Virus record (IMG/VR): IMGVR_UViG_3300045825_000261
Coordinates: 21,175-85,174 of that record
Reading direction: 5' to 3' (one strand)
DNA length: 64,000 nucleotides
From: a virus
Of the stretch, positions 9,269 through 60,618 are shown one piece after another (position 1 is the first letter of the stretch; every line of letters starts with the position of its first letter). A program made the position numbers and the translations under genes. Under the pieces are notes generated by a model that saw only the letters and a program-made list of their open reading frames with translations, was not told where the DNA came from and did not search any database.

Positions 9269-9907
9269 TTACGACCTCAATTCAGGAGCAGCAACGATAC
9301 GACCAGCGATTTCCTGCGCTATGCAAAAATCAAGCAGAATCGGTAAAGTGATAGATACATGAGAAGCTGCGGCGCTGTCGCCCATTTCGGTTTTGGTTAA
9401 AAATAACTCTTTCAATTCGCGTTTATCAAAGCCTCCGTCAATCAGACCGTCAATCGCTACAGACATAAAACGTGGCCGTGAATTCGCTAGAGCGTTGCGC
9501 CCCTCCTGAATACCTTCTTTTATCTTTTCAATCAGACCTTGATTACACAGATTGCGAGCCTGCTCTCGCGGCTTAATCTTCATCTTCGCAAGAATCAATT
9601 CATGCTCGACCGGAATCGAAAACTTCACAACCTCAACGCCAGTCACGCGCTCTACCGGCTGAGTAATCTTCGCCTCAACTTTTGAGGCGAGCTCCTCAGC
9701 CGTCATACGACGAGCCATTTTTCGCTTTGCGTCGTCATGCCGCTTCAGCAAGTCAGTCACATTAACAAGCCCTCTTATTGACTCAAGCGTCTTCAGAGAC
9801 TCGTCAGAGCACGCCTCAAAATGAGAGCATGTCTTGCAAATGTCAGAATCGTGCGAAAACACACTTGCTGCGCCATAACATCCCGGAACACCTTTGGCTT
9901 CACTCAC
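9269..9907 (-). CDS. hypothetical protein with N-terminal Cys cluster
   Basis: PGCYG...CKTC...C; overlaps upstream stop (GTGA). Confidence 0.75.
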   Translation of the reverse strand: MSEAKGVPGCYGAASVFSHDSDICKTCSHFEACSDESLKTLESIRGLVNVTDLLKRHDDAKRKMARRMTAEELASKVEAKITQPVERVTGVEVVKFSIPVEHELILAKMKIKPREQARNLCNQGLIEKIKEGIQEGRNALANSRPRFMSVAIDGLIDGGFDKRELKELFLTKTEMGDSAAASHVSITLPILLDFCIAQEIAGRIVAAPELRS

Positions 9908-10563
9908 TTGATTCCCCTTATCGCAGATTTTTTTAACTCAAACCTTGCCTTACTTACCGACGCTTCGCTGACTCCAAGCAAAACAAGAAAATTACAAATA
10001 AAACTCATATCAATTGTCTGTCTTGCTCTTTTTTGCTGTCCGGCTTGTCGAGTCAACCCAACATGAGCAACGCAAGCCTCAAATTCGCGCTCAAGCTCTT
10101 TGGGCGGGTCAATTAGCCAACGCGCAATCAATGAAGCGAGAGGCGATAGGTTAGAAAGCATCCTACTCAACGACTGAGAAGTGGAAAGCTCACTCTCTGG
10201 CGTTTGACGAGAGCATGTTAAAATATCAAAGTCATCAATATCTGTGCCTGTTGCGCTACTATACCGATGTGCCATTTCTTCAACAGACCTGACTCCATTA
10301 TCGACTCGTTCCTCCTTTACCTTCTCGGCGATTTTGTTGATCTGGTTGTAGGCTGCGCGAGTGTAGTAACTTGAAAACTTATACCCACACTCTTCAGAAA
10401 ACCCATCAAACGCCTTTACAAAAACAACGCTTAACTCCTGCACAAGATCGTCATAGTCTACCGGCGCACCCATCGCAACAAGTCGCCCATAACCTTTTCT
10501 CGCCGCGTAATGCACGAGCCCCACATGAGTGGTGTAGTATTTGTTTAACTCATTGCGGTCCAT
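9904..10563 (-). CDS. sigma70 region-2-like factor
   Basis: HVGLVHYAARK...DDLVQE...KAFDGF...GYKFSSY..RAAYNQI. Confidence 0.7.
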   Translation of the reverse strand: MDRNELNKYYTTHVGLVHYAARKGYGRLVAMGAPVDYDDLVQELSVVFVKAFDGFSEECGYKFSSYYTRAAYNQINKIAEKVKEERVDNGVRSVEEMAHRYSSATGTDIDDFDILTCSRQTPESELSTSQSLSRMLSNLSPLASLIARWLIDPPKELEREFEACVAHVGLTRQAGQQKRARQTIDMSFICNFLVLLGVSEASVSKARFELKKSAIRGIK

Positions 10564-10567
10564 GAGA

Positions 10568-11755
10568 TTAACCAAATATTCTCTGAGCGAGGCCATCAAT
10601 TACTTCGCGATCCACGCGAGATAGCTTATTGATAAACGATAGCGTCAGACCTTGACGGAACGAGCCACGCTTAACACCGATCTTGGCCGCGTAAATCAAG
10701 GTGCGTGGCGAAATAACGTCACTGACCTTTGCGCCGTCATACGCATCACGAACAAGCCCTGCGAACTCAACCATCTTGTCAGCGTCCTCTTTAACCAGAC
10801 CAACGTGATTTTGAAGAATTTGCGACTCAGCCTTCTTGTTCATGTACTGCTTGTTCACAACCATGCCGAAGCGGTCGTAGTTGGCGCTGTTACCGATAAC
10901 CGTACCTTGATACAGACCAGTTTCGTCACCGGAGCCATTTGTGTTACCTGTAGCAACGAAGCGAAAGTTCGGGTGAGGCTTGATAATGCGCATCGTTACA
11001 GGTGCTTCCTTGATGACCAGCGGCTTACCTTCGAGCACGGCTTGATAGACCGAACTTACAGAAGGCAGCATGAAGTCATATTCATCAGCGCAGTACGTCC
11101 AGCCGTTGATCATCGCAAGAGGCAATTGACCGTATTCAAATACAGTGTGACCATCTTTCACCGTCCACTGACCGACAATGTGGCTCTCTTCAGTGTTCAC
11201 GGTATGCTGAACGCGAACGTATGGGCGACCAGTGCGTGCCGCTACCTGCTCATGCAGTTCTGATTTACCAGCGCCCTTGTGACCCCAGACGTAGCAAGGA
11301 ATATTCAGTTCTTGCGCCAAGATCACGTTTTTCAATTCGTCAATATCGAAGACGTAATTGTCAGATATGTCCGGTACAAAATCCTGACACGAGCTATTGA
11401 CCAGAACGCCGATGGGTATCGCTTCGCCTTTTGCAGACATTGCAGACTTAACCTTGCCAAGACCAAAAACTTCGTGAAATGCCTTTTTAATGATCGAGTC
11501 TTTGGGCGCGACAGTTGCGGAGGTCGCCATTTCAAATTTCAAACCAGAGGCTTCAGCCGGTGCTGCCGCTGCGGCACGCTTTTCTGCACGCTTTTCTGCA
11601 AGCTTTGTCTGAGCAAATTCAGACATGAGCGGAGCTTCTGGGAATTTAGCCACGTACTGCTCGGTGGTCATTTCGGGGTGATCCTTCTTCAAGTGCAGTT
11701 GAACTGAGTGAATTTGAGCTCCGCAAATTGCGCAAGTGATTTTGTCTGTTGACAT
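10568..11755 (-). CDS. CobS/MoxR-like AAA+ ATPase with N-terminal zinc finger
   Basis: GHKGAGKS, ADEYD, HPNFRFVATGNT, DRF, ISPR; N-terminal CAIC..H..H. Confidence 0.9.
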   Translation of the reverse strand: MSTDKITCAICGAQIHSVQLHLKKDHPEMTTEQYVAKFPEAPLMSEFAQTKLAEKRAEKRAAAAAPAEASGLKFEMATSATVAPKDSIIKKAFHEVFGLGKVKSAMSAKGEAIPIGVLVNSSCQDFVPDISDNYVFDIDELKNVILAQELNIPCYVWGHKGAGKSELHEQVAARTGRPYVRVQHTVNTEESHIVGQWTVKDGHTVFEYGQLPLAMINGWTYCADEYDFMLPSVSSVYQAVLEGKPLVIKEAPVTMRIIKPHPNFRFVATGNTNGSGDETGLYQGTVIGNSANYDRFGMVVNKQYMNKKAESQILQNHVGLVKEDADKMVEFAGLVRDAYDGAKVSDVISPRTLIYAAKIGVKRGSFRQGLTLSFINKLSRVDREVIDGLAQRIFG

Positions 11756-11867
11756 ATAAGTCTCCTAAAATTTGATTCAGTGCAGCAACATTGCTGCGAC
11801 AGAAGAATAATAATCATTTCTGTCAGGATAGACAAGTCACTTGTGACTTATCCTGACGGTTATCCAA

Positions 11868-13814
11868 TTAAGCTACCAGCAAGTGACGCAATTCCTTGAT
11901 AACCTGATTTGGCAACTCGGTCACGTCATTTATAACCAAGTTCTTTGGGTAGAACTTGCGAACTGACTCATCCATGATGCCAATACCGACAACCTTCACT
12001 CCTGACTTAGTTACCTCGGCAACAACCTTAGTCAAGTGCGTCCGCATTGCGCAACTATCGCCGTAAGCACTTGGTGAGCCGTCCGACAGTACGATCATCA
12101 CCTTGCCTGTTTCGCGCCTTACCTTGAGACGATGAGCGGCGACCTCGACACATTCGCCGTCCACGTTGTTTCGTAAAATGCTTGAGTTAGGCAACCAACC
12201 AAAGCGGTCACGAACTGGTGCGGTTAGGCGCTCATCGAAAGACTTCAGTATCGGCATATACAATGGCTCGCTTCGCGAAAAATTGCGCCCAAGCTTTTTA
12301 ACCTCCGCCTCAATAGCGTATCTGTCTTCAGAGCTACCGCCGGTCGTGAAGCAGATCACCTCATGCTTGATGCCAATACGTTCGAGAACCTGCGACAGCG
12401 CATAGGCCGCCTGTGTCGCCAGATGAATTTTCGCACCAGCCATCGAACCAGACGCATCAATAACCAAAGACACCGCCACGTCCTTGCTGTTCGCTTCGTG
12501 CTTTTTGCGAAACACACGATCGTCGCCACAAGCTAAACGAGAAAGGTTAGCGGCGTGCATACGGCCGGAACGACGACCGTTTTCCCACTGAGACAAAGAA
12601 CGGGCAGCTATGGCGCGTTCAAGGTCTTTTTGCAGTGGCCCAACCATGTGATCAACCTTATCTGCCAAGCTAACAAACATTTCAGGGCGGTAGTCTCTAC
12701 CAACCTTCAGAGGCTCAACAACATCGTCGTCCTTTGTAAAAACAAGGTAATCAGACTCTTTAGCCATACCAAGAGCGGAGTCAGAGATTACGACCGACAT
12801 TGCCTCGTCAAAGCCGTTTGCAGAATCTTTATCAACCGCAGCCATGATTGCCGACGTGTCGCCAAGCTCAACTTCTTTATCGGAAGAGTCGCTTTCAGTC
12901 TCGTCTTCGGCGTCACCTTCAGAACCGCCTTCTTCAGAATCATCTTCGCCTTCTTCAGAATCATCTTCGCCACTCTCTGACTTTTCTGATTTTTCACCTT
13001 CATCAGACTCGCCTTCGTCTTTACTTTCCTCGTCAGACTCGCCTTCCTTTTCTTCAGATTTGGCTTTAGACTCTGGTGCTTTACCTTTACTCTTGGTCGA
13101 TTTTTTAGACTTCGATTCGCCTTCACCTTCGTCACCAGCGCCATCTTCATTCTTGTCTTCCGACTTTTTATCACTCTTATCGCCACTGCGAAGGCGCTTT
13201 TCAATTTCTTGCGCAAGCGCAAAACACTCTTCGGTAGACGAGGCGCGTTCTATTTGCGATTCCAAATCTTTGATTTTTTCATAAATCGGCTTTACGCTTT
13301 CCATCTTGTCACGCATGAACTCTTTGAAGAGCCACTGACCAGACATTGCGCGAAGCAGCGGAACAAGCAGTACGCCGACTAGCTTATTCATATCGCCCTC
13401 TTCCATCGCCTCTTTCATTTTCGGTACGGTGAACTTGTCCAAAAAGAACTTACCAGTGACAGACAGGTTACTTGCGCATCCGGCGAACTTCTTACCCATG
13501 CACTTTTCAACACGAGGGTCTTCAAGAGCATTCAGCATTTTTCCACAACCTGCCTTGTTTGCCTTTTGCATGACTGAAAAATCGCTAAACATAATGTGAG
13601 CAACTTCGTGATCCAAGAAGCCTTGAATCGCATAACACAATTCGTCAGTTGCGTTATCTGGTAAATATGGAAGGTTGACCAGAATTGGTCGACCCATATG
13701 ATCACCTCTAACGTAAGCGGTAACTCCTCGCTGAGTTACCTTAATGCCCTTGCCGGACAGCATTTGTGTGATTTTCACTACCGCATCGCGGAGGACTAAT
13801 ACTCTATCGCTCAT
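11868..13814 (-). CDS. CobT-like vWA protein
   Basis: DHEVAH, LEDPRVE, acidic linker, MIDAS DASGS, LSDGSP. Confidence 0.9.
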   Translation of the reverse strand: MSDRVLVLRDAVVKITQMLSGKGIKVTQRGVTAYVRGDHMGRPILVNLPYLPDNATDELCYAIQGFLDHEVAHIMFSDFSVMQKANKAGCGKMLNALEDPRVEKCMGKKFAGCASNLSVTGKFFLDKFTVPKMKEAMEEGDMNKLVGVLLVPLLRAMSGQWLFKEFMRDKMESVKPIYEKIKDLESQIERASSTEECFALAQEIEKRLRSGDKSDKKSEDKNEDGAGDEGEGESKSKKSTKSKGKAPESKAKSEEKEGESDEESKDEGESDEGEKSEKSESGEDDSEEGEDDSEEGGSEGDAEDETESDSSDKEVELGDTSAIMAAVDKDSANGFDEAMSVVISDSALGMAKESDYLVFTKDDDVVEPLKVGRDYRPEMFVSLADKVDHMVGPLQKDLERAIAARSLSQWENGRRSGRMHAANLSRLACGDDRVFRKKHEANSKDVAVSLVIDASGSMAGAKIHLATQAAYALSQVLERIGIKHEVICFTTGGSSEDRYAIEAEVKKLGRNFSRSEPLYMPILKSFDERLTAPVRDRFGWLPNSSILRNNVDGECVEVAAHRLKVRRETGKVMIVLSDGSPSAYGDSCAMRTHLTKVVAEVTKSGVKVVGIGIMDESVRKFYPKNLVINDVTELPNQVIKELRHLLVA

Positions 13815-15006: not shown

Positions 15007-15297
15007 ATGAAAACATTTGACGTTGCCGCATGTGCGGACTTCCTTAAAATTCACCGAACCACAGTCCTAAAGCTTGTGGCGTCTGGCGACCTTCCAGGCG
15101 CAAAGATAGGCCGCGCCTGGGTCTTTCTTGAAACAGACTTAATCGACTATATACGCAACGCCATTCGCTCACAGAGTCACGTCACAACTAAGCCACAAGT
15201 GACTGAAGCTATGCGAGCAGAGCCAATAGGTCGTAAGCGAAAGGTTGCGCCAGACCTCTCTGCATACACGTCACCACATCTTTCGCGCCAAATCTGA
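15007..15297 (+). CDS. excisionase-like HTH protein
   Basis: CADFLKIHRTTV...GDLPGAKIGRAWVF; convergent with integrase. Confidence 0.85.
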   Translation: MKTFDVAACADFLKIHRTTVLKLVASGDLPGAKIGRAWVFLETDLIDYIRNAIRSQSHVTTKPQVTEAMRAEPIGRKRKVAPDLSAYTSPHLSRQI

Positions 15298-16446
15298 CGC
15301 CCTAAGATTTGCATAGCGACCCAACATTTGAGTGCTGCTGTGTCCGGTGATCTTCATAATCTCAAAGTCCGACATTTCCGTTCTCTCGAAAAGTCTACTG
15401 GTCGCCTCGTGGCGCATGTCGTGAAAGTTTAAATCAACACAGCCGGCCGCCTCAAAGATTCTGGTGAACTGGTGCGACAGTGCCGATGTAACTTTCTCAT
15501 ATCGCTCCTTTGGCAAAAGCATAGCGATCTTCTTCTCAGCGAGCCATGGGAATAGATACCCACCGTCAAACGTAAACAACTCCATTCCTCTTCGCTTTGC
15601 AAGAACGTGCTCCGTATAGGTAATCAGGCTCGCGATGGCAACAGACGACAGCGGCACCTGTCTGCTTTTGCCATTTTTGGTTTTTTTAAGAAAGATTGTC
15701 GCATTCTCAATGTCCACCATGTCCATTTCAATTGAATAGATTTCACTGAGCCGCATTGCTGATTCAACAGCAAGATCAAACACGCACTCGATAGCCGCTT
15801 GGTAATCAAGCTTAAACGCCCTTTCTCGGCCCTCTGGCTTAACCTTGTTCATCACCGCCCTAATTCGCTCTTCCTCACCAGACTCAAGGCGTCTGATGCG
15901 CCCTGCGCTGTGCTTAACCTCCAACGTGTCATCTTTAGCAATGACGGCCGCATCTGCTGGCGTATAGGCGGAATACCCCTTCGGCAACAGTCTGAGAGGG
16001 TTTGGAGCAAGCTCCGCAACACCCTGCGTTATTGCCCAGTCAAAACACCGAGCAAGCGCACCGACATTATGTCTGATTGTGGATGGGGACAAATTAGCCA
16101 CGCGCTTCATCGAGCTTATCCATGACTCGATCCACTTGTAGTTGACGAGTCTTATACTTACACCGCCAACCTTATTAAGCAAACCACTCAGGTAATCAGT
16201 ATCGCAGGACGTGACGTGACGCTCGCGCATATATTCACGAATAAGATCGCCAATTGAAGAATACTTCTTCACATCGTCAAGAAGCTCTGGTGGCACGATA
16301 CCGGCATCGAGCAACGACTCGACATGTTTGCCGTAAGCGATCGCAGCCTCTTCCGTATCGAATGTCCAATACCACGGCTTTTCTCTTACTGCTTTTCTTT
16401 TCACGGTCAACTCAAAGCGACCGCCTCTTGGCTTAATTGACGCCAT
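15271..16446 (-). CDS. int: tyrosine integrase
   Basis: AMRLSEI, KTKNG, FHDMRHEATS, ITGH, RY catalytic set. Confidence 0.95.
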   Translation of the reverse strand: MASIKPRGGRFELTVKRKAVREKPWYWTFDTEEAAIAYGKHVESLLDAGIVPPELLDDVKKYSSIGDLIREYMRERHVTSCDTDYLSGLLNKVGGVSIRLVNYKWIESWISSMKRVANLSPSTIRHNVGALARCFDWAITQGVAELAPNPLRLLPKGYSAYTPADAAVIAKDDTLEVKHSAGRIRRLESGEEERIRAVMNKVKPEGRERAFKLDYQAAIECVFDLAVESAMRLSEIYSIEMDMVDIENATIFLKKTKNGKSRQVPLSSVAIASLITYTEHVLAKRRGMELFTFDGGYLFPWLAEKKIAMLLPKERYEKVTSALSHQFTRIFEAAGCVDLNFHDMRHEATSRLFERTEMSDFEIMKITGHSSTQMLGRYANLRASDLARKMW

Positions 16447-16513
16447 AACGACTCCCGTTCGCCCACATGGGCTGATTATTGTAACTCACGTCCTTGCACA
16501 AAAGTATGGTTAG

Positions 16514-16727
16514 TCGGTAGGTTCTGCCTACCGAGCAGCCGACTTGATGCGACTTTTGGCGACTTTAGACGATAATGGGCAAATAAAAAGCCGCCCGAAG
16601 GTGGCTTAACTTGTTGATTTTGTGGTGCATTTTGTTTTTTACTTCAGATGGTGAGTGGATTTGCAATCCGTCCGGTTATCTTTAGAATCAGTAACTTACA
16701 AGCTTCGCCTACTAACTTGCCTACCGA
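16514..16727. other. intact attP
   Basis: Core GGATTTGCAATCC at 16657-16669. Arm repeats GCCTAC(C/T)(G/A)A at 16526, 16707, 16719 and inverted at 16514. IHF-like sites at 16607-16619 and 16686-16698. Phased CGACTT at 16540/16550/16560. Confidence 0.75.
16585..16607 (-). terminator. intrinsic terminator
   Basis: Minus strand AAGCCACC-TTCG-GGCGGCTTTTT. Confidence 0.75.
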
Positions 16728-16731
16728 TATT

Positions 16732-16805
16732 TGGAGGTGCGTCCCAGAGTCGAACTGGGCTAACGTGATTTGCAATCACGGGCATAACCGATTTGCTAAC
16801 GCACC
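16732..16805 (-). tRNA. tRNA-Cys(GCA)
   Basis: 74 nt; GGTGCGT/ACGCACC acceptor stem, U73, encoded CCA, anticodon arm CGTGA-TTGCAAA-TCACG, T arm CCCAG-TTCGACT-CTGGG. Confidence 0.95.
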
Positions 16806-21343: not shown

Positions 21344-21802
21344 TTACCAGCTTGCCCAATCACCGCCCCGCTCCAGTTCTGGAGCGGGCTCTTCACAAAC
21401 AATGCCATCATCAACGCTGTCGCTATCAACAATAAGCTCAACCCCCAAAGCAATACAAATTCGATTGGCGACAAGCCGCCCATAATGTTCAAAACAAACA
21501 GATTCAAGCGTAACAGACGGAACCTCGTGACCCTCGTTAAATAATCCGTAGCTAGAAAAAGTCTCGTTGTATCCTCGACCCTCTTTTTCATTCAGTATAT
21601 TTAACCGAGCTAGTCCGAGATTTCGCTCGTCTGTAAACATTTCCAACTTCACCTGACAACTGTGACTGTGACACTTGTCTAATTTCCCCCACCTCTTAAT
21701 CAGAACACCTCGCCCCGCACTCTGATTCCAAAGCTGAATCGCCTCATAGAACTTAGTGCCCCACTCGTGAATCTGAATGTGACCACCCTTATGGATGTTC
21801 AT
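21344..21802 (-). CDS. WGR-like domain protein
   Basis: TKFYE...VLIKRWGK...KEGRGY. Confidence 0.6.
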   Translation of the reverse strand: MNIHKGGHIQIHEWGTKFYEAIQLWNQSAGRGVLIKRWGKLDKCHSHSCQVKLEMFTDERNLGLARLNILNEKEGRGYNETFSSYGLFNEGHEVPSVTLESVCFEHYGRLVANRICIALGVELIVDSDSVDDGIVCEEPAPELERGGDWASW

Positions 21803-21896
21803 GTCTCACCTCTCTATCTTGCACTGCTCACAAGAAACATTATATAAACCGCAAGCTGGATATTATAGTCATTTGTGACTTACTCCAGCTAATAAG

Positions 21897-22982
21897 TTAC
21901 GACATTTTTGACGCCATCATCTTCAACTTAGTCATTGTCATGGCATTGACGCTCATTGCCTTCCAGTACGCATCGCGAACAGCGGGCGCGGCTACCTCAT
22001 TCGGATCTTTGCCGACCGGCAGTACGGCAACGCGAGTGTTAAAGCCGTAACCTTTCAACTTTAGCGCCGCTTCTGCCGCCGCCTCAAGTGCTTTCGGTTC
22101 AGCATCCCACATAAACGTAACCGTCTTCAGACCTCGCTCTTTCAATTGCATTAGCTTGGCTACCTGACTGCTATCGTCGCCAAACGACAGGCTCTTACCA
22201 AACGAACCAACAGGCACAATGTCCCTAAGCTCCATCTGTCCATCGAGCGCGATCTTGGTGGCCATAACGTCGAACACGCCCTCGCCAATTACGACATGTT
22301 CAGCGCCCAAAGCGTTCTGACCGTTGTAAATGACGCTGCCGGTTGAGGCAAAGCCTGGTGGAAATAGATACTTCTTTTCAGCGTCACCCGTAATGTCGCG
22401 TCCTTGAAACGACACAAGTTCACCTTCCAGATCAAATATGGGAATAATGATTCTGTTGGCGTACGATTGATGACGATCTTTCCCATCTTCGTCCCTGTAG
22501 TTAAACCAGCCCTTCTTTGAAAACCTCAACCCAAAGTATCGAGCCACACTGGAGTCGATGTTTCGATTTATCAGGTACTTCAAGTTTCGCCCATCGCGAG
22601 GCAGCGCAAACGAGTCAGGCAAAACTAACTCAGTATTGAGATTGGTAGCTACCGCAATTCGCTTAGGCGGACGCCATCCCTGCTCTTTCGCCGCCTGCTT
22701 AATATGTTCGATAACCTCTCTGGTGCTCATGTGTCCAAAGAATGACTTGATGAATGTGAACTTGTTAAATTTCTTTTCACAATCGCCAGAGAAACAGTTC
22801 CCAAAGCCAGTCTCAAGACCAATATAGACCTTCCAGTTTGAATTGCCGCAGCATGGGCATTCCTTTACGTTTGCTTGTGGCCCTCTTGAGCCACGCTCGC
22901 GCTTGTAAGTAATTCCCTCTCGATCAAGCCATGACTCTATGTCCAGCATGTCGAGAATTTCGCCAAGCTCGTCACTCAGCAT
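21897..22982 (-). CDS. DNA primase (Zn finger + TOPRIM)
   Basis: CPCC..CFSGDC, RIIIPI, FQGR, EGVFD, WDAE, KDPNE. Confidence 0.9.
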   Translation of the reverse strand: MLSDELGEILDMLDIESWLDREGITYKRERGSRGPQANVKECPCCGNSNWKVYIGLETGFGNCFSGDCEKKFNKFTFIKSFFGHMSTREVIEHIKQAAKEQGWRPPKRIAVATNLNTELVLPDSFALPRDGRNLKYLINRNIDSSVARYFGLRFSKKGWFNYRDEDGKDRHQSYANRIIIPIFDLEGELVSFQGRDITGDAEKKYLFPPGFASTGSVIYNGQNALGAEHVVIGEGVFDVMATKIALDGQMELRDIVPVGSFGKSLSFGDDSSQVAKLMQLKERGLKTVTFMWDAEPKALEAAAEAALKLKGYGFNTRVAVLPVGKDPNEVAAPAVRDAYWKAMSVNAMTMTKLKMMASKMS

Positions 22983-23178
22983 ATTCTGCACTCACTAACG
23001 TCCAAAAGTCCGTGATAACACATACGATAGCGCTGGCGGAAAGACCGTGACGAACGAGCATGGCAACTATGTTGCGAAGACGCTTCTCTGTCGTCGCACA
23101 CCAGAAGCCAACACCCTTCACTTTTACGATTGCGTCCTCAATCTCTTTTTCAAACTTGCTCACTTCAACCTCACTCAA
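22972..23178 (-). CDS. hypothetical protein
   Basis: Short ORF overlapping primase start. Confidence 0.5.
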   Translation of the reverse strand: MSEVEVSKFEKEIEDAIVKVKGVGFWCATTEKRLRNIVAMLVRHGLSASAIVCVITDFWTLVSAEYAE

Positions 23179-23238
23179 TTTTGACTTACATTATTTTCTC
23201 ACAATTGATCAGGAGTGACTTACCTCCTGACCGGACAT

Positions 23239-24651
23239 TTACTCAACCCCAATGACGCTCTCTACGAACTTCATTCGAGCCAAATCCTGCTTGATAATAA
23301 TGACGAACCCGCTCTCTTGATTTCGAGACGCGGCAAAGTACAGACGAGCCTCGCCCTTCTTCGCCTCTTCTTCCGTCTTGTTGATCGAGATAACCAAATC
23401 GGCAGTTCTGATCTTGTTAAAGTCTTCAGCAACGTGTTCGGCTTTCGCTACCGTAGCCTTAAAGCCTTCTCGATTCGTCTGAGTTGCGGTAAGAACGGCG
23501 CAGTCAAACTCAAACGCTATCGCACGAAGTCCAAGACCGATCGACTTGGAGTTCTCAATAACGCTGTCAGTGCGATTGTCGGGACACATAATATCGGCGT
23601 AATCGACAACAACCATGTCATAGCGAGTACCCTTTGACTTGTGTGCCTCAAGCAGCTTTCGCAACATTGCCGGACTCAACATGCCAGACGGGTACTCTGC
23701 AAGGTCAAGTTTGCCGGCGCGAGCCTCTAGCGCCGACAGCTTCGACTCAATGGTCTTCATGCTGATGGTCAAGTCCTTCATCAGCGTGTTTGTAATACAC
23801 GCATCTAGCCGCTCTTCAATAATCCGAGCAGCAACCTCACACGTCACATACAGTACATTTTTTCCAGCGAGTGATGCTGCTTGAGCGAAGTTAATCAAGG
23901 CAGTGGTCTTACCCGCTTTCGCACCGCCCATAATGATCGTAAGTTCCTTGCGCCCCCAGCCCTTGTGATAAAGCAACTCGTCCATGCGGTGAATGCCGGT
24001 CGTGATGCCCATAGGCGGCATCTTTCCGGCTATTCTGTCTGCACGTTCTTCTGTTCTTGCCTCGGTATCCCAATAACTGCGAATGCCGCCGTCCTCATTC
24101 AACCCAATCTCAAGAGCGGCCTTGAACGAACTCTCGATTTTGGAGAAGTTTTTCTTCTCCAGAAGCGATACCGATGCAAGAATCGCCTGCGCAGTGGCCT
24201 GATGTCTTGCGAATTCAGCAAGCTTATCCGCAACATAGTTGCCGTCTGTCAGATCATCCTGCTTCATTTGCTTCCAGGCGGCGGACACGACAGACAGAAT
24301 GTCCTTACGAATCACGCCGCTACGAATAGCCTCAGTGATCAACTCCTTCATCGAGGCTGTCGCGGGAACGGCGTTATACTTTTTGAAGTGCTTTATCGCC
24401 ATACTGACGAGAGCGGCTTCGCCCACATTCTCGAAGTGATCAGGGTTAAGCAGATGTATCGTTTTTCGAACAAAGCCATCGTCTCTCAACGTAAGAGCGG
24501 CTATTCTCGACTGAAACGCATCGCTAAACTCAAACTTCTCGGCCTTTACCTCTTCTTGCTCCGACTCATCTTCGGTCGGTGAGCCGCCCATATACGAGGC
24601 GGCAATCATATCTGCGACAGAACCCTCTGTCGCACTGGTGGTTTCGACCAT
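23239..24651 (-). CDS. dnaB: replicative DnaB/gp41-like helicase
   Basis: GGAKAGKT, VVVDYAD, ATQTNR, AED, ADLVISI. Confidence 0.92.
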   Translation of the reverse strand: MVETTSATEGSVADMIAASYMGGSPTEDESEQEEVKAEKFEFSDAFQSRIAALTLRDDGFVRKTIHLLNPDHFENVGEAALVSMAIKHFKKYNAVPATASMKELITEAIRSGVIRKDILSVVSAAWKQMKQDDLTDGNYVADKLAEFARHQATAQAILASVSLLEKKNFSKIESSFKAALEIGLNEDGGIRSYWDTEARTEERADRIAGKMPPMGITTGIHRMDELLYHKGWGRKELTIIMGGAKAGKTTALINFAQAASLAGKNVLYVTCEVAARIIEERLDACITNTLMKDLTISMKTIESKLSALEARAGKLDLAEYPSGMLSPAMLRKLLEAHKSKGTRYDMVVVDYADIMCPDNRTDSVIENSKSIGLGLRAIAFEFDCAVLTATQTNREGFKATVAKAEHVAEDFNKIRTADLVISINKTEEEAKKGEARLYFAASRNQESGFVIIIKQDLARMKFVESVIGVE

Positions 24652-24652
24652 A

Positions 24653-25039
24653 CTAACCCCCTACAGACTGTGTGCGTTCTGCAAATTGAGGCTCAAATTC
24701 AGAAATATCATGCTTGAAAATTACACGAGTTCTGCCGTCGCTCAAGACGGATACGGTGTATTTATCAGAATGCTTAATTGTCCCAGTGAACCTTTCACCG
24801 GAGCTAACCTTCTCAAACGCTACAGTAGCGTTAGACGCCTCTAAAGCCTTCAGAAACGCCTCGTGACCCTTTGGCACTATCTTCGTCTTAGACGAAGACT
24901 TTGGTGCGCGAATAGTGCCTGAAATTCTAGACTGCATGACGCCATCAACCATCTTAGACGGAACAGAATCAGCCTCTCTCATATTTAGTGCAAACGCTCG
25001 CTGTTCCTCGCGAACCTGTTGATCGAACGGTTTATTCAT
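24653..25039 (-). CDS. hfq: Hfq/Sm-like RNA-binding protein
   Basis: HEAFLKALE..NATV....SGERFTGTIKHSDKYTVSV....RVIFKHDIS aligns with Hfq helix, Sm1 and Sm2 (YKHAIS). Confidence 0.7.
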   Translation of the reverse strand: MNKPFDQQVREEQRAFALNMREADSVPSKMVDGVMQSRISGTIRAPKSSSKTKIVPKGHEAFLKALEASNATVAFEKVSSGERFTGTIKHSDKYTVSVLSDGRTRVIFKHDISEFEPQFAERTQSVGG

Positions 25040-25100
25040 AACTCCCCCTTATAAAAATGCAGAATCGCGCTGCACCGCTATTATAGTCACTACTGACTTA

Positions 25101-25835
25101 TTATTCTGGGAATCTCAATTCTTTCATCGCTTCATCTACCAGATCGTCCCCAAACTGTATTCTTGCCGTTTCGATTCTCAGGGCGTTATGCTCATACATC
25201 GAAGCGCATAAAGTGAAACGCTTATGTTGCCGATTGCGAATCTGTGCAACGATAAAGTTCTCATAAGCTTTTTGGTGCGCATCTCCGTGCCACCTATAAC
25301 ACTTGTACCAAGTGTCCTTTGAAAGTTGTAAGCGAGTTGCACACTCCTCTTCCCACCGCATCATTACCGCAACGATCATCTCCTCGTTATCCCCCATCTG
25401 ACCTGGGCGTGGCGGATACAGCGATTGCCTTCTAAAACATTCCTCTGTGTACCAGAGCATACACTCCGTCAAAAAGAAGTCATACCGAATGCCGAGACTA
25501 TCAACCAACTGACGCAACCGCCAAATCGAAAGCTTTTCCCGCGCATTGAGGAAATCATCTCCCTTGATTGGCTTAACAAAATCCGCTCTGTCTGAATCAA
25601 CCGCTATTCTGGTGAATTCCCGATACGCCATCTTGTAGCATTCCATAAAATAATTTGTCGCATACAGTGGGTGCATCCGACGATAGTCAAACCACTTTTT
25701 GTTCATCAGTTCGACCTCAAGCTTTAAAAGTTTTGCCGGTATGTGCTGAATCGTTAGAATCTCACAATCCCGAAAAGAAAAATCAGAACCAAAGAAGGAA
25801 CCGCACCACTTGGGAATAACTTGGGGCATCCACAC
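25101..25835 (-). CDS. conserved phage protein upstream of helicase
   Basis: KWFDYRRMHPLYAT motif recalled from SSU5-like genomes; start uncertain. Confidence 0.7.
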   Translation of the reverse strand: MWMPQVIPKWCGSFFGSDFSFRDCEILTIQHIPAKLLKLEVELMNKKWFDYRRMHPLYATNYFMECYKMAYREFTRIAVDSDRADFVKPIKGDDFLNAREKLSIWRLRQLVDSLGIRYDFFLTECMLWYTEECFRRQSLYPPRPGQMGDNEEMIVAVMMRWEEECATRLQLSKDTWYKCYRWHGDAHQKAYENFIVAQIRNRQHKRFTLCASMYEHNALRIETARIQFGDDLVDEAMKELRFPE

Positions 25836-25924
25836 CGCTCCTATAAGTATTTACAATATATTTAAAACCAATTATTACCATTTATTCTTTACCGCTCGTC
25901 AGAGGACGACCCAAGTTGGGAAAG
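25808..25924 (+). repeat. iteron/AT-rich element, copy 1
   Basis: ACTTGGGAATAACTTGGGGC-N13-CTATAAGTATT, AT-rich tract, CAGAGG..TTGGGAAAG. Confidence 0.7.
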
Positions 25925-25978
25925 CGTATCGGTTCAGCTTTTCAACTCAAGTCGCATTGTTACATCTGAACTCTGGAA

Positions 25979-26740
25979 CTACAGTAGCGGCTGCTCGTAA
26001 GCCTGAACTATCTCCTGAACCAAACCGCTGCGAACAATATCGTCTCTTGTGAACTGAATACATTTTACTGATGGTATGTAGGACAGTTTCGCAATCGCGT
26101 CGGCAAGACCAGATTCCCCGCGAATGTCTTTTTGAGTAATGTCGCCATTCACCACAACCTTTGTATCTTGACCAATGCGGGTAAGAAACATTTTCATTTG
26201 AGTTGGGGTTGTATTTTGGGCTTCATCAAGAATTACAAAGGCGTTCTTAAATGTTCTGCCACGCATATATGCAAGTGGGGCCGCCTCAATACGGCCGGCT
26301 TTAATTAGATACTCTACAAATGTCTTCCCAAGCCGCTCATTGAGAACGTCCTTGAACGGTTGAAGGTACGGATCAAATTTATCTTCAATCTCCCCAGGCA
26401 GGAATCCCAAGTTTTCACCAGCCTCAACAGCGGGTCTGGTGATAATGATCTTTTCAATCTCGCCACTCTCAAGCATCTGTGCCGCTGTCGCTGCGCATAA
26501 CCACGTTTTACCGCTTCCAGCAGGTCCAGTTGCAAAGGTTAGCGTAGAAGACTTCATGGCGTTGATATAGCGCCGTTGCGCATCGCTCTTAGCGGTTATT
26601 GGAGAGGTGTCTCGTTGTCGTGCTGGTGCTGGTGCTGCGTGTTCTCGCAGTTCAATTTCAACGACTTGCGCGTCATGTGGGCGTTGGTTTTTAGAGCGAT
26701 GGTGCGATTGGCGCTTACTAGACATACTTGCGTTCCTCAT
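25979..26740 (-). CDS. phoH: PhoH-family ATPase
   Basis: GPAGSGKT, ITRPAVEAGENLGFLPG, YMRGRT, LDEAQN, GDITQ. Confidence 0.95.
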   Translation of the reverse strand: MRNASMSSKRQSHHRSKNQRPHDAQVVEIELREHAAPAPARQRDTSPITAKSDAQRRYINAMKSSTLTFATGPAGSGKTWLCAATAAQMLESGEIEKIIITRPAVEAGENLGFLPGEIEDKFDPYLQPFKDVLNERLGKTFVEYLIKAGRIEAAPLAYMRGRTFKNAFVILDEAQNTTPTQMKMFLTRIGQDTKVVVNGDITQKDIRGESGLADAIAKLSYIPSVKCIQFTRDDIVRSGLVQEIVQAYEQPLL

Positions 26741-26803
26741 AAGTGATTAAGTGACGACTAAGAATAGCTCAGTCGTGACTTAATCACAATATAAGAAAGG
26801 TGA

Positions 26804-27133
26804 TTATCCCCAGAATTCAGCGGAAACCACACATGTTGCAGTTGCAATTACACTAATTGAAGCAATGTCCTCAACGCAGAAAAATGGCTGAACGGTGGCG
26901 GGAACAGACACCGACCCAATACCTGTAGTTACATCAATTGTTCCAGTTGTGGCTACTCCATTTGGGTTGTAGTAAAACAGTGCACCAGCAGACAGCCTCA
27001 CAAAGCGAGCTCCGACAGGTTTAGCAAATGACTTTGCGACGTTTGCAACAAGCGCCACGGAGTTAATATAATCTGGAACGTTCTCTGTGTAGCAAAGAGA
27101 GTTGGCGTCCGCTGTGTAAATAAGTTTTTTCAT
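26804..27133 (-). CDS. hypothetical beta-rich protein
   Basis: ORF with RBS and upstream operator/promoter. Confidence 0.7.
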   Translation of the reverse strand: MKKLIYTADANSLCYTENVPDYINSVALVANVAKSFAKPVGARFVRLSAGALFYYNPNGVATTGTIDVTTGIGSVSVPATVQPFFCVEDIASISVIATATCVVSAEFWG

Positions 27134-27189
27134 AATATTTCCTATAAAAGTTAATAGCCAAGTATATCAGTTATGACTTATCTGTCCAG

Positions 27190-28491
27190 TTAAGACTCGT
27201 CTTTGTTTCGGTGATACCACTTCCCGCCTGAGATTGCAAAATCAGTAACGGTTACATAGTCAAAGTTGGTGGATCGCTTTTTCGTATCGACGTTAATTAG
27301 CGCGAACCCATTGTTCCAACGTTCGCCTTCACAATACGAAGCCGATCTTCTGTGCCCAGAGCCCAACTGATGCCACTCATATGGGCCGTAGATTGGGTTA
27401 AAGGCACTCCAAACCTGATGCTTGTGATGATGCCCATTTACGCCAGCGAGCCCCATGTTTCGAGCATGTGGAAAGTGGTGACAAACAACTGTTTCCCAAT
27501 AAATCTTGTAATTGTTTGCCAACTCTTTCTCTTGCTCGCGTTTTGTCCACGCTGCAAGGTCTGCTTTTGCAATATAGTTTATATCGAAGTCGTTAAGCCC
27601 AAGCAGCTTGCTCGCCGTAAACCCATGCAGATCGGCAAGAACCGACCTGAGTGCCGGCGTTGCATCGGCAAGCTGACGAATCATTCTAGCCTCATGATTA
27701 CCCTCAATGAGGTCAAATTGCGAGTCGGGGCAAGCCTCTCGAAGCGGTGCAAAGATTTTTTCATGCACAAACTTAATGCGACCCACTACATCCCATTCGC
27801 GAGGATCGACTAGATATTTGCCAAACTCAGCAAGGTCAAACACATCGCCAACGAAACATATGACATCAGGCTGTACTCGCCTTGCGGTATCTATTAGAAC
27901 GCGAAGATAGAATGGGTCAATTTCAATGTCGTGAAGGTCGGAGCAGGTAAGAATTGTCTTGAAGCGATTGCTGTTCTCACGAATATATTTATCGGCGTAG
28001 TCCTGACGCTCGATACTCACCTGACGATAATGATCGACGCTGGCGTGTTTCGCGATATTTCTTTCATGCGCGTGCTGTTGACGAGAAAGTTTTACACCGG
28101 CTTGTCGCTTGAACTCTTCAAAAGTTCCAAAATATCTATTCCACGTAGCTTCTGAAATTTTTGAATGGTTACGGAAATAGTTGCGAGTAACAATTTGCTC
28201 AACGTCAATTTCAGAAATCCTGCGAAGCTCGTCAAGGCAATCATCAGCAGTCCACTCGTCGTGAAATCTTGAAGAGTCTTCCGACATTGGAGCTTCGGAA
28301 TGACATGCTCTCAATATGATTTTTGGCATTCGAGGATCGCTCTTAGACAGCCCTCGAATAACAGCCGCCTTATTTCTTACTGTCTTGATTGAAATGCCCA
28401 AGAATGCAGCAACGTCGGCGAGTGTGTGATACTTTTCCAAATCGTTGTAGATGGATAAGAAGTCGTCGCCTGATTTGATTTTATCAGCCAT
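27190..28491 (-). CDS. HTH + helical repeat + calcineurin-like metallophosphoesterase
   Basis: TLADVAAFLGISIKTVRN; YFGTFEEFKRQAG; SDLH, GDVFD, GNHE, GHHH. Confidence 0.8.
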   Translation of the reverse strand: MADKIKSGDDFLSIYNDLEKYHTLADVAAFLGISIKTVRNKAAVIRGLSKSDPRMPKIILRACHSEAPMSEDSSRFHDEWTADDCLDELRRISEIDVEQIVTRNYFRNHSKISEATWNRYFGTFEEFKRQAGVKLSRQQHAHERNIAKHASVDHYRQVSIERQDYADKYIRENSNRFKTILTCSDLHDIEIDPFYLRVLIDTARRVQPDVICFVGDVFDLAEFGKYLVDPREWDVVGRIKFVHEKIFAPLREACPDSQFDLIEGNHEARMIRQLADATPALRSVLADLHGFTASKLLGLNDFDINYIAKADLAAWTKREQEKELANNYKIYWETVVCHHFPHARNMGLAGVNGHHHKHQVWSAFNPIYGPYEWHQLGSGHRRSASYCEGERWNNGFALINVDTKKRSTNFDYVTVTDFAISGGKWYHRNKDES

Positions 28492-60589: not shown

Positions 60590-60618
60590 AGTATAAGTCA
60601 GTCGTGACTTATATGCAA
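60590..60618 (-). promoter_or_regulatory. portal promoter with perfect operator in spacer
   Basis: TTGCAT-17-TATACT; TAAGTCAGTCGTGACTTA at 60594-60611. Confidence 0.65.

Follow-up and report, generated by a model that had tools for sequence, protein, structure and literature searches.

A phage gene whose product resembles Hfq, one of the best-studied bacterial RNA-binding proteins, sits directly ahead of the gene for a DnaB-type replicative helicase, and its position raises two questions: is the product a genuine member of the Hfq family, and what would such a protein do in a phage replication operon? The stretch of DNA analyzed here (64,000 nucleotides, "the window") is part of an 85,174-base IMG/VR virus record with a CheckV completeness estimate of 81%. 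Its genes lie almost all on the minus strand. PHROG scans reveal a siphovirus-type terminase, portal, major head protein, tape measure, and J-like tail fibre, together with lysis genes, an integrase, and a full replication complement of DNA polymerase, SSB, exonuclease, recombinase, ligase, primase, and DnaB-type helicase. The region holding the integrase, an excisionase-like ORF, and a tRNA-Cys gene (15007..16805; Table 1), along with copies on large bacterial contigs, indicates a temperate, integrating phage. Also present are two adjacent auxiliary genes (10568..13814, minus strand) whose products resemble CobS/CobT-type (porphyrin/cobaltochelatase-like) AAA proteins, assigned to PHROG 249 and PHROG 1576.

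Table 1. Coordinates in the window of the features discussed in the text, with the basis for each.
Feature	Coordinates	Strand	Basis or detail
Divergent excisionase-like HTH ORF	15007..15294	+	
Integrase	15274..16446	-	
tRNA-Cys gene	16732..16805	-	
DnaB-type replicative helicase, 470 aa, second gene of the operon	23239..24651	-	Pfam DnaB_C 58.6 bits; PHROG 19, E 8.6e-78
Helicase N-terminal peptide A-E-x-S-V-A-x-M-I-G-x-x-F-x-G, followed by an acidic linker	24583..24630	-	Alignments
Stop-start junction TAG-T-ATG between the Hfq-like gene and dnaB	24649..24655	-	Sequence: TAG 24655-24653, one base, ATG 24651-24649
Hfq-like ORF, 128 aa plus TAG stop	24653..25039	-	ORF listing; Pfam Hfq; AlphaFold2 model and Foldseek
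Sm/Hfq core, residues 58-118: alpha-1 KGHEAFLKALE, Sm1 (G86, D92, K93, Y94), Sm2 (F108 K109 H110 D111 I112 S113)	24686..24868	-	pLDDT 94-97; conserved columns; mapping to canonical Hfq
Disordered basic linker, residues 24-57	24869..24970	-	pLDDT 46-59
N-terminal helix, residues 4-23, with R10 and Q13 (I/V-R-x-E/D-Q...A/G-R-x-M)	24971..25030	-	AlphaFold2 pLDDT 70-87; conservation
Shine-Dalgarno-like AAGGGGGAG, last base 2 nt from the ATG	25042..25050	-	Sequence reading
Palindrome TAAGTCA-N4-TGAC overlapping TATAAT	25080..25100	-	TAAGTCA-GTAG-TGAC 25100-25086; TATAAT 25085-25080; begins right after the stop of the upstream gene
Upstream gene, PHROG 2500	25101..25835	-	PHROG 2500, E 5.8e-67; separate transcription unit, with phoH

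A diverged member of the Hfq family

The original prediction, made by eye, was that the C-terminal part of the ORF aligns with Hfq, and several independent lines of evidence bear this out. All three of the motifs on which it drew are found in the 128-aa product: FLKAL at residues 62-66, GERFTGTIKHSDKY at 81-94, and IFKHDIS at 107-113. The Pfam search proposed as a check gives a match of PF17209 (Hfq) to residues 61-118 at 36.3 bits (E 4.4e-9), above the curated gathering cut-off of 27. Among PDB sequences, phmmer matches at E<0.1 comprise Hfq proteins only, led by those of Bacillus subtilis (3ahu, E 8.4e-5) and Staphylococcus aureus (1kq1, E 5.6e-4), and a profile of the family reaches the same two proteins at E 2.2e-7 and E 8.4e-8, respectively. 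The Sm fold, on which the identification had been staked, is present in an AlphaFold2 model built from an alignment of 69 family sequences: mean pLDDT is 80 overall and 94-97 for residues 61-120, and the confident part (pLDDT 94-97) consists of a helix (residues 59-69) followed by five strands between residues 72 and 117. The top Foldseek matches of this model in the PDB are Hfq without exception, at rmsd 0.9-1.1 A; for 1kq2_H, E is 6.9e-6, with rmsd 0.9 A across 59 columns and a TM-score of 0.88 by target. In the family, G86 and D92 of Sm1 are invariant, and F108, K109, H110, D111, I112, and S113 of Sm2 are invariant or at least 90% conserved. Membership of this ORF in the Hfq family is thus solid.

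Equivalence with cellular Hfq is another matter. Both NCBIfam equivalog models for the cellular protein miss it by a wide margin (TIGR02383, 30.4 bits against a cut-off of 61.7; NF001602, 22.7 against 95). Given the Pfam and fold matches on one side and these scores on the other, the ORF belongs to the Pfam Hfq family without being the equivalent of cellular Hfq; within the Sm fold it is a true member of the Hfq branch, though one that has diverged strongly. From homology, the protein is presumed to assemble into a homo-hexameric ring and to bind nucleic acid.

The same divergence weighs on the idea that the phage protein acts as a poison subunit, entering mixed rings with host Hfq and so disabling host riboregulation. 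In favor of this idea, conservation extends to the Sm2 strand region, through which the subunits of Hfq contact one another in the ring (FKHDIS in the phage protein, YKHAIS in the host type). The proteins are nevertheless very distant: BLASTP against a host-type Hfq (Massilia) yields no significant alignment (E 0.48), the relationship is seen by profile only, with identity at that level of 32% over 56 columns, and the TIGR02383 score is far below its cut-off. None of the data indicate the host protein as a target. Mixed rings become less likely with such distance, and we regard this explanation as very improbable.

The family is large. One homologue search returned 204 matches at E<=1e-3 out of 211 candidates, about a quarter of the homologues being named Hfq by JGI or NCBI and many lying on contigs of 100-118 kb. 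When a profile was run over 1.84 billion cluster representatives, 620 were hit at E<=1e-3, of which 222 reached E<=1e-10 and 41 reached E<=1e-30; the 222 clusters come almost throughout from metagenomic viral contigs, with a few from Burkholderiales genomes. Bacterial assemblies that carry the gene include a Betaproteobacteria MAG, Massilia sp., a Paraburkholderia MAG, and Herbaspirillum huttiense, all of them Burkholderiales or nearby. Searches of other collections were negative: tblastn with the Hfq-like protein found no match among 50,697 phage records (E<=0.01) or 72,556 plasmid records (E<=1e-3), megablast of positions 23000-26800 found none among the phage records, and PADLOC returned nothing for the Hfq-like protein or four neighbors. 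Judged from sequence, then, the ORF falls in a distinct subfamily that was previously without characterization. In the literature searched, the phrase "phage-encoded Hfq" was absent and no description of such phage Hfq homologues was found. One study does class a different protein, gp39 of mycobacteriophage Adephagia, as Hfq-like from structure prediction (PMC11373665).

With a family of this kind in hand, there is next to no probability that the ORF is a chance reading frame or a decaying remnant without function. The sole point in favor of that reading is an alternative start picked by one gene caller. Against it stand the 204 homologues and 222 clusters from two separate searches, many invariant or near-invariant columns, a confident fold, and a kept genomic position; these conservation data already contradict it.

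The alternative start bears more directly on the N-terminal extension, for which a length of about 55 residues had been predicted and about 57 residues are found ahead of the Sm core. One public gene call (P0001, 109 aa) begins instead at M20. The longer form is supported by the Shine-Dalgarno-like site before the ATG at 25039, which reads AAGGGGGAG-TT up to the start codon, and by R10 and Q13, both at least 90% conserved in 69 relatives. The helix motif that contains these residues occurs in 87 of 112 unique family sequences; it is not found in a short subgroup (88-107 aa) whose Sm2 reads FKHAI and which retains coupling to dnaB. Charge is distributed unevenly along the chain: across the 112 unique sequences, net charge averages +4.6 (range +2 to +7) over the 20 residues ahead of the GH motif and -1.2 over the Sm core.

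How the core compares with canonical Hfq at functional positions is instructive. The proximal uridine pocket of Escherichia coli Hfq comprises Q8, F42, K56, and H57; the rim arginine patch (R16, R17, R19) is required for annealing two RNAs; and the distal face offers an A-rich site with an aromatic residue at position 25. Mapped by HMMER and hhalign alignments, K93, Y94, K109, and H110 of the phage protein correspond to K41, Y42, K57, and H58 of S. aureus Hfq and are invariant or at least 90% conserved. The Gln8 position is taken by an invariant histidine, His59, inside an invariant G-H-x-A-F-L at the start of the helix. The rim is different in kind: R16, R17, and R19 of the E. coli protein become E67, A68, and N70, the stretch reads E67-A68-S69-N70, and zero Lys or Arg occur in the five-residue rim stretch of 104 of the 112 unique sequences. 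On the distal side, E. coli Tyr25 aligns with E76, as does the B. subtilis Phe, with a one-residue insertion beside it. Conserved columns fall in helix alpha-1, the SDKYT loop, and RVxFKHDISEF, and strands 1-2 differ among subgroups.

As aligned, the uridine-pocket residues of the proximal face are retained in the phage family except for His in place of Gln8, and uridine binding is predicted; the arginine rim patch and the distal-site aromatic residue of the E. coli-type matchmaker are absent. From this pattern of residues and charge, conservation is centered on the proximal face and helix alpha-1, and positive charge has shifted from the rim to the flexible tail. The family may thus be regarded as a natural separation-of-function variant, in which the proximal pocket stays, the rim and distal sites are lost, and charge is carried on a flexible tail.

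An operon with the replicative helicase and its regulatory site

Placement of the gene in a replication module and its translational coupling to dnaB had both been anticipated from the single sequence, and both are borne out across related loci. The helicase lies directly downstream in the window, with TAG-T-ATG as the junction, and in 66 of 66 IMG/VR loci recovered via the Hfq-like protein, among which the protein is 34-69% identical to that of the window. The helicase start codon lies -4 to +5 nt from the Hfq-like stop in 61 of these 66 loci; the remaining five distances are -10 (two loci), -8, +10, and +24. The start codon nearest to the stop was chosen in each case, which favors small values, and most tblastn helicase alignments start at residues 1-9.

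Because the 66-locus set is circular with respect to gene presence, a second set was fetched via the helicase alone. Among the best 80 loci so obtained, 75 have an Hfq-like ORF ending at the helicase start, and 22 of these 75 carriers are contigs outside the first set. The other five are not assessable: four are at contig ends, and in one a large helicase insertion leaves the search range short of the upstream region. Three Burkholderiales genome assemblies hold the same module. Hfq had been thought not to be a standard phage gene; in this clade that view does not hold, as the count of 75 of the 80 closest DnaB loci attests.

Shared operon and translational coupling imply that the Hfq-like protein and the helicase are made together. 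How much more can be read from the arrangement is a separate question. Other junctions of the replication module in the window measure 61, 143, and 247 nt, and many genes elsewhere in the phage genome also meet at tight stop-start junctions. Since all loci also belong to one clade with conserved gene order, the synteny may reflect descent rather than function. No fused Hfq-DnaB or longer forms were found at E<=1e-5, which is weak evidence. In one IMG/VR contig (loci L015 and L158) the helicase frame extends to 937 aa, where about 475 is usual, and the part of the match covering the C-terminal half is displaced by about 2 kb, suggesting an intein or other large insertion.

By helicase, the nearest cultured phages are Pseudomonas phage nickie (45% identity), Rhizobium phage RHEph10, Stenotrophomonas phages, and SSU5-like phage-plasmids. 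In the Salmonella phage SSU5 and in RHEph10, the same upstream gene is followed by the same helicase with no gene between them, so the Hfq-like gene is not indispensable in the wider phage group. In Stenotrophomonas phage BUCTxx99, a 69-aa hypothetical ORF (L071:2281-2490) at the equivalent position overlaps the helicase start and looks Sm-like by eye; it has no Pfam hit at E<=1 and an hhalign probability of 0.07%, and we do not claim it as a homologue.

The upstream gene is itself a steady companion. It belongs to PHROG 2500, lies directly upstream in 65 of 66 loci (the last being cut at a contig end), and is kept beside the helicase in SSU5, nickie, and RHEph10 as well. Its product is modeled as all-helical (pLDDT 94, pTM 0.90). 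Searches of Pfam, PDB sequences, and NCBIfam found no match for it, Atlas hits stay below 0.8, Foldseek gives no match at E<=1e-3, and the best VIA match, at Z 5.5, is at the noise level for helical proteins. With sequence and structure matches this insignificant, naming the protein a loader or initiator is unsupported.

Between this gene and the Hfq-like gene lies the promoter-like site, which the original prediction described as a TATAAT overlapped by an operator. The overlap itself stands. The palindrome is no private operator of this gene, though, for GTCA-N4-TGA occurs 57 times in the window against 8.9 expected. The coding strand has about 32 such sites (for example, at 60608, 56905, 32517, 26779, 25097, 21879, 11847, and 5775), and 23 of them fall in the non-coding part of the window, which makes up approximately 6% of it; most of these sit shortly ahead of a gene, and the majority of intergenic regions bear the element. 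The strict palindrome pattern has five matches, with 0 expected, and the full consensus is a perfect 18-bp palindrome, TAAGTCA-N4-TGACTTA, often overlapping or preceding a TATAAT-like hexamer. A generic sigma-70 scan did not list the TATAAT at 25085-25080, because no -35 hexamer lies at the usual spacing. Conservation extends to the related loci: of 51 unique loci, 36 carry the promoter-like motif 33-51 nt ahead of the Hfq-like start codon, as counted in the 70 nt upstream, a span that clips the motif in several of the other loci. The element has the look of a binding site for a dimeric regulator encoded by the phage, or of a promoter element peculiar to it, and its recurrence, together with the stop-start junction, identifies the Hfq-like gene and dnaB as a two-gene unit at one general phage regulatory site. 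Elsewhere in the window, an ORF (9904..10599, minus strand) has a weak sigma-70/ECF likeness (PHROG 351, E 1.8e-12; TIGR02937, 39.3 bits against a cut-off of 42.9) and is a candidate reader of the phage-wide motif.

The leader between this site and the start codon is where translational autoregulation would act, with the ring binding the hfq-like/dnaB mRNA leader and setting helicase dose via coupling. There is precedent, in that E. coli Hfq represses its own mRNA, and coupling would make dnaB translation depend on the first cistron. The leader in the window carries AUUUUUAUAA immediately ahead of the Shine-Dalgarno sequence, and a run of at least four U is found by eye in about half of the related leaders. 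Many other leaders are C/A-rich and lack a U run, however; the predicted leader fold is not better than shuffled sequence (z -0.83); and hairpin-plus-U elements follow several other promoter-like sites of the phage and so are not specific to this gene. Autoregulation by this route seems to us improbable.

Candidate roles in replication and RNA biology

The most likely explanation, which we put forward tentatively, is that the protein binds U-rich RNA or single-stranded DNA on one face, is made together with the helicase, and acts in the replication programme. In outline, the Hfq-like/dnaB unit would be transcribed from the palindrome-marked promoter-like site, and Hfq-like subunits would form a ring whose proximal pocket binds U-rich RNA and possibly single-stranded DNA. 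Each subunit would bring an N-terminal tail that is flexible and strongly basic, joined in most members by a short conserved helix. The ring may then bind primer or origin-region RNA, or work beside the helicase. The conserved coupling to dnaB favors a replication-linked role, without demonstrating it. Loss of the rim arginines speaks against matchmaking between sRNA and mRNA in the classical manner, and we do not favor a general role of that type for the Hfq-like protein.

A broader alternative places the protein outside replication altogether, as a general phage RNA chaperone or sponge whose ring binds U-rich 3' ends of host or phage small RNAs and transcripts, stabilizing or sequestering them so that the host is reprogrammed; the position ahead of dnaB would then provide early or middle timing only. 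The proximal uridine pocket is the best-conserved surface, annotation pipelines already call relatives Hfq, and the hosts inferred from prophage copies are Burkholderiales with a canonical Hfq of their own, encoded in all three genomes searched (103 bits on the Pfam model, against 33 for the phage-type copy). Hfq-like folds also occur in many unrelated phages with no helicase link, according to the viral structure library and one study (PMC11373665). Several observations pull the other way. The window offers no Rfam family and no candidate partner sRNA: a search of its whole length at gathering thresholds found nothing, and relaxing the threshold to E<=1 over 21800-27300 brought up nothing beyond one snoRNA-like hit of the kind expected by chance. 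The rim arginines used for annealing are missing, and the coupling to dnaB kept in 61 of 66 loci despite 34-69% protein identity is left unexplained. On balance, this role is the chief competitor of the replication-linked one, though on the unlikely side.

A more specific version of a replication role would make the Hfq-like ring a physical partner of the phage DnaB hexamer, with a conserved hydrophobic helicase peptide on an acidic tether docking on the ring or its basic tails. The peptide in question, at the very N-terminus of the helicase, is present in 62 of 62 unique helicases with a typical neighbor (at least 65 bits on the family profile; 74 helicases in total) and absent in 11 of 12 with an atypical or missing Hfq-like neighbor; the helicases of SSU5, RHEph10, and BUCTxx99 are likewise without it. 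Placed on the helicase tree, co-variation of peptide and Hfq type reduces to two independent pairs on supported branches, or three on all, of which about two point in the same direction (sign-test p 0.5), and with two to three independent contrasts only, the test is underpowered. One loss of the peptide, at locus L129, is nested inside the clade. Acidity of the helicase segment is ruled out as a trait specific to carriers: its mean charge is -8.3, and RHEph10 (-9) and SSU5 (-5) are also acidic. Complex prediction with the helicase and the Hfq-like protein each supplied as an alignment (score 0.00, mark 0.32) counts neither way, and the pointers to contact between the two proteins are gene position and the accompanying peptide. 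Docking of this sort is doubtful at present. If it does occur, an RNA-chaperone fold will have been recruited as a helicase cofactor, for example in loading on RNA-primed or R-loop origins or in primer-RNA coupling, and the family would represent a previously unknown class of replication accessory protein.

Whichever role applies, in a large clade of temperate phages, about 105-115 kb in size, an Sm-fold family is tied to the replicative helicase. Once known, the role would reveal either phage interference with Hfq-dependent regulation or an Sm ring serving DNA replication, and either would widen the known uses of the fold. It would also supply a function for a conserved gene whose product is labeled hypothetical in cultured relatives, phage nickie among them.

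Relation to known Hfq proteins and helicase loaders

By position, the closest parallels are the phage helicase loaders lambda P, SPP1 G39P, and T4 gp59, which are encoded directly upstream of the helicase gene. Like them, the Hfq-like protein is the product of a small gene right before that of a DnaB-type helicase, with which it is co-translated. The resemblance is one of arrangement: the folds are unrelated, no sequence or structural similarity is seen, and SSU5 and RHEph10, which do not have the Hfq-like gene, still have the same helicase.

Burkholderiales host Hfq and Burkholderia Hfq2 belong to the same Pfam family as the phage protein, and hosts of related prophages hold both host-type and phage-type members. 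The available part of one account describes Burkholderia species as keeping two Hfq-like proteins, Hfq and Hfq2, and does not mention phages (PMC7074383). Relative to the host Hfq, the rim arginines and distal tyrosine are replaced in the phage protein, and there is no significant pairwise similarity.

Among cultured phages, gp117 of nickie (YP_009620715.1, a hypothetical protein) is encoded at the corresponding position, with the PHROG 2500 gene on one side and dnaB on the other; it aligns at an hhalign probability of 92.7% and is the second-best match in the viral structure library. It differs in several respects. At 89 aa it is without the N-terminal helix, its Sm2 reads FKSS instead of FKHD, with loss of the histidine, its Pfam score of 23.4 bits is under the cut-off, and the helicase that it accompanies has an N-terminus unlike those of window-type helicases.

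The best matches in both sequence and structure are the Gram-positive-type Hfq proteins of S. aureus (1KQ1, 1KQ2, and 3QSU) and B. subtilis (3AHU and 3HSB). These share with the phage protein a common fold and the K-Y and K-H pairs of the uridine pocket, and their rims are weakly basic too. The phage protein departs from them in having His for Gln8, one extra residue between alpha-1 and strand 1, and no distal aromatic residue. Where cellular Hfq carries a C-terminal tail, it carries an N-terminal extension of about 57 residues, and, unlike the Gram-positive proteins, it is encoded in the dnaB operon of a phage.
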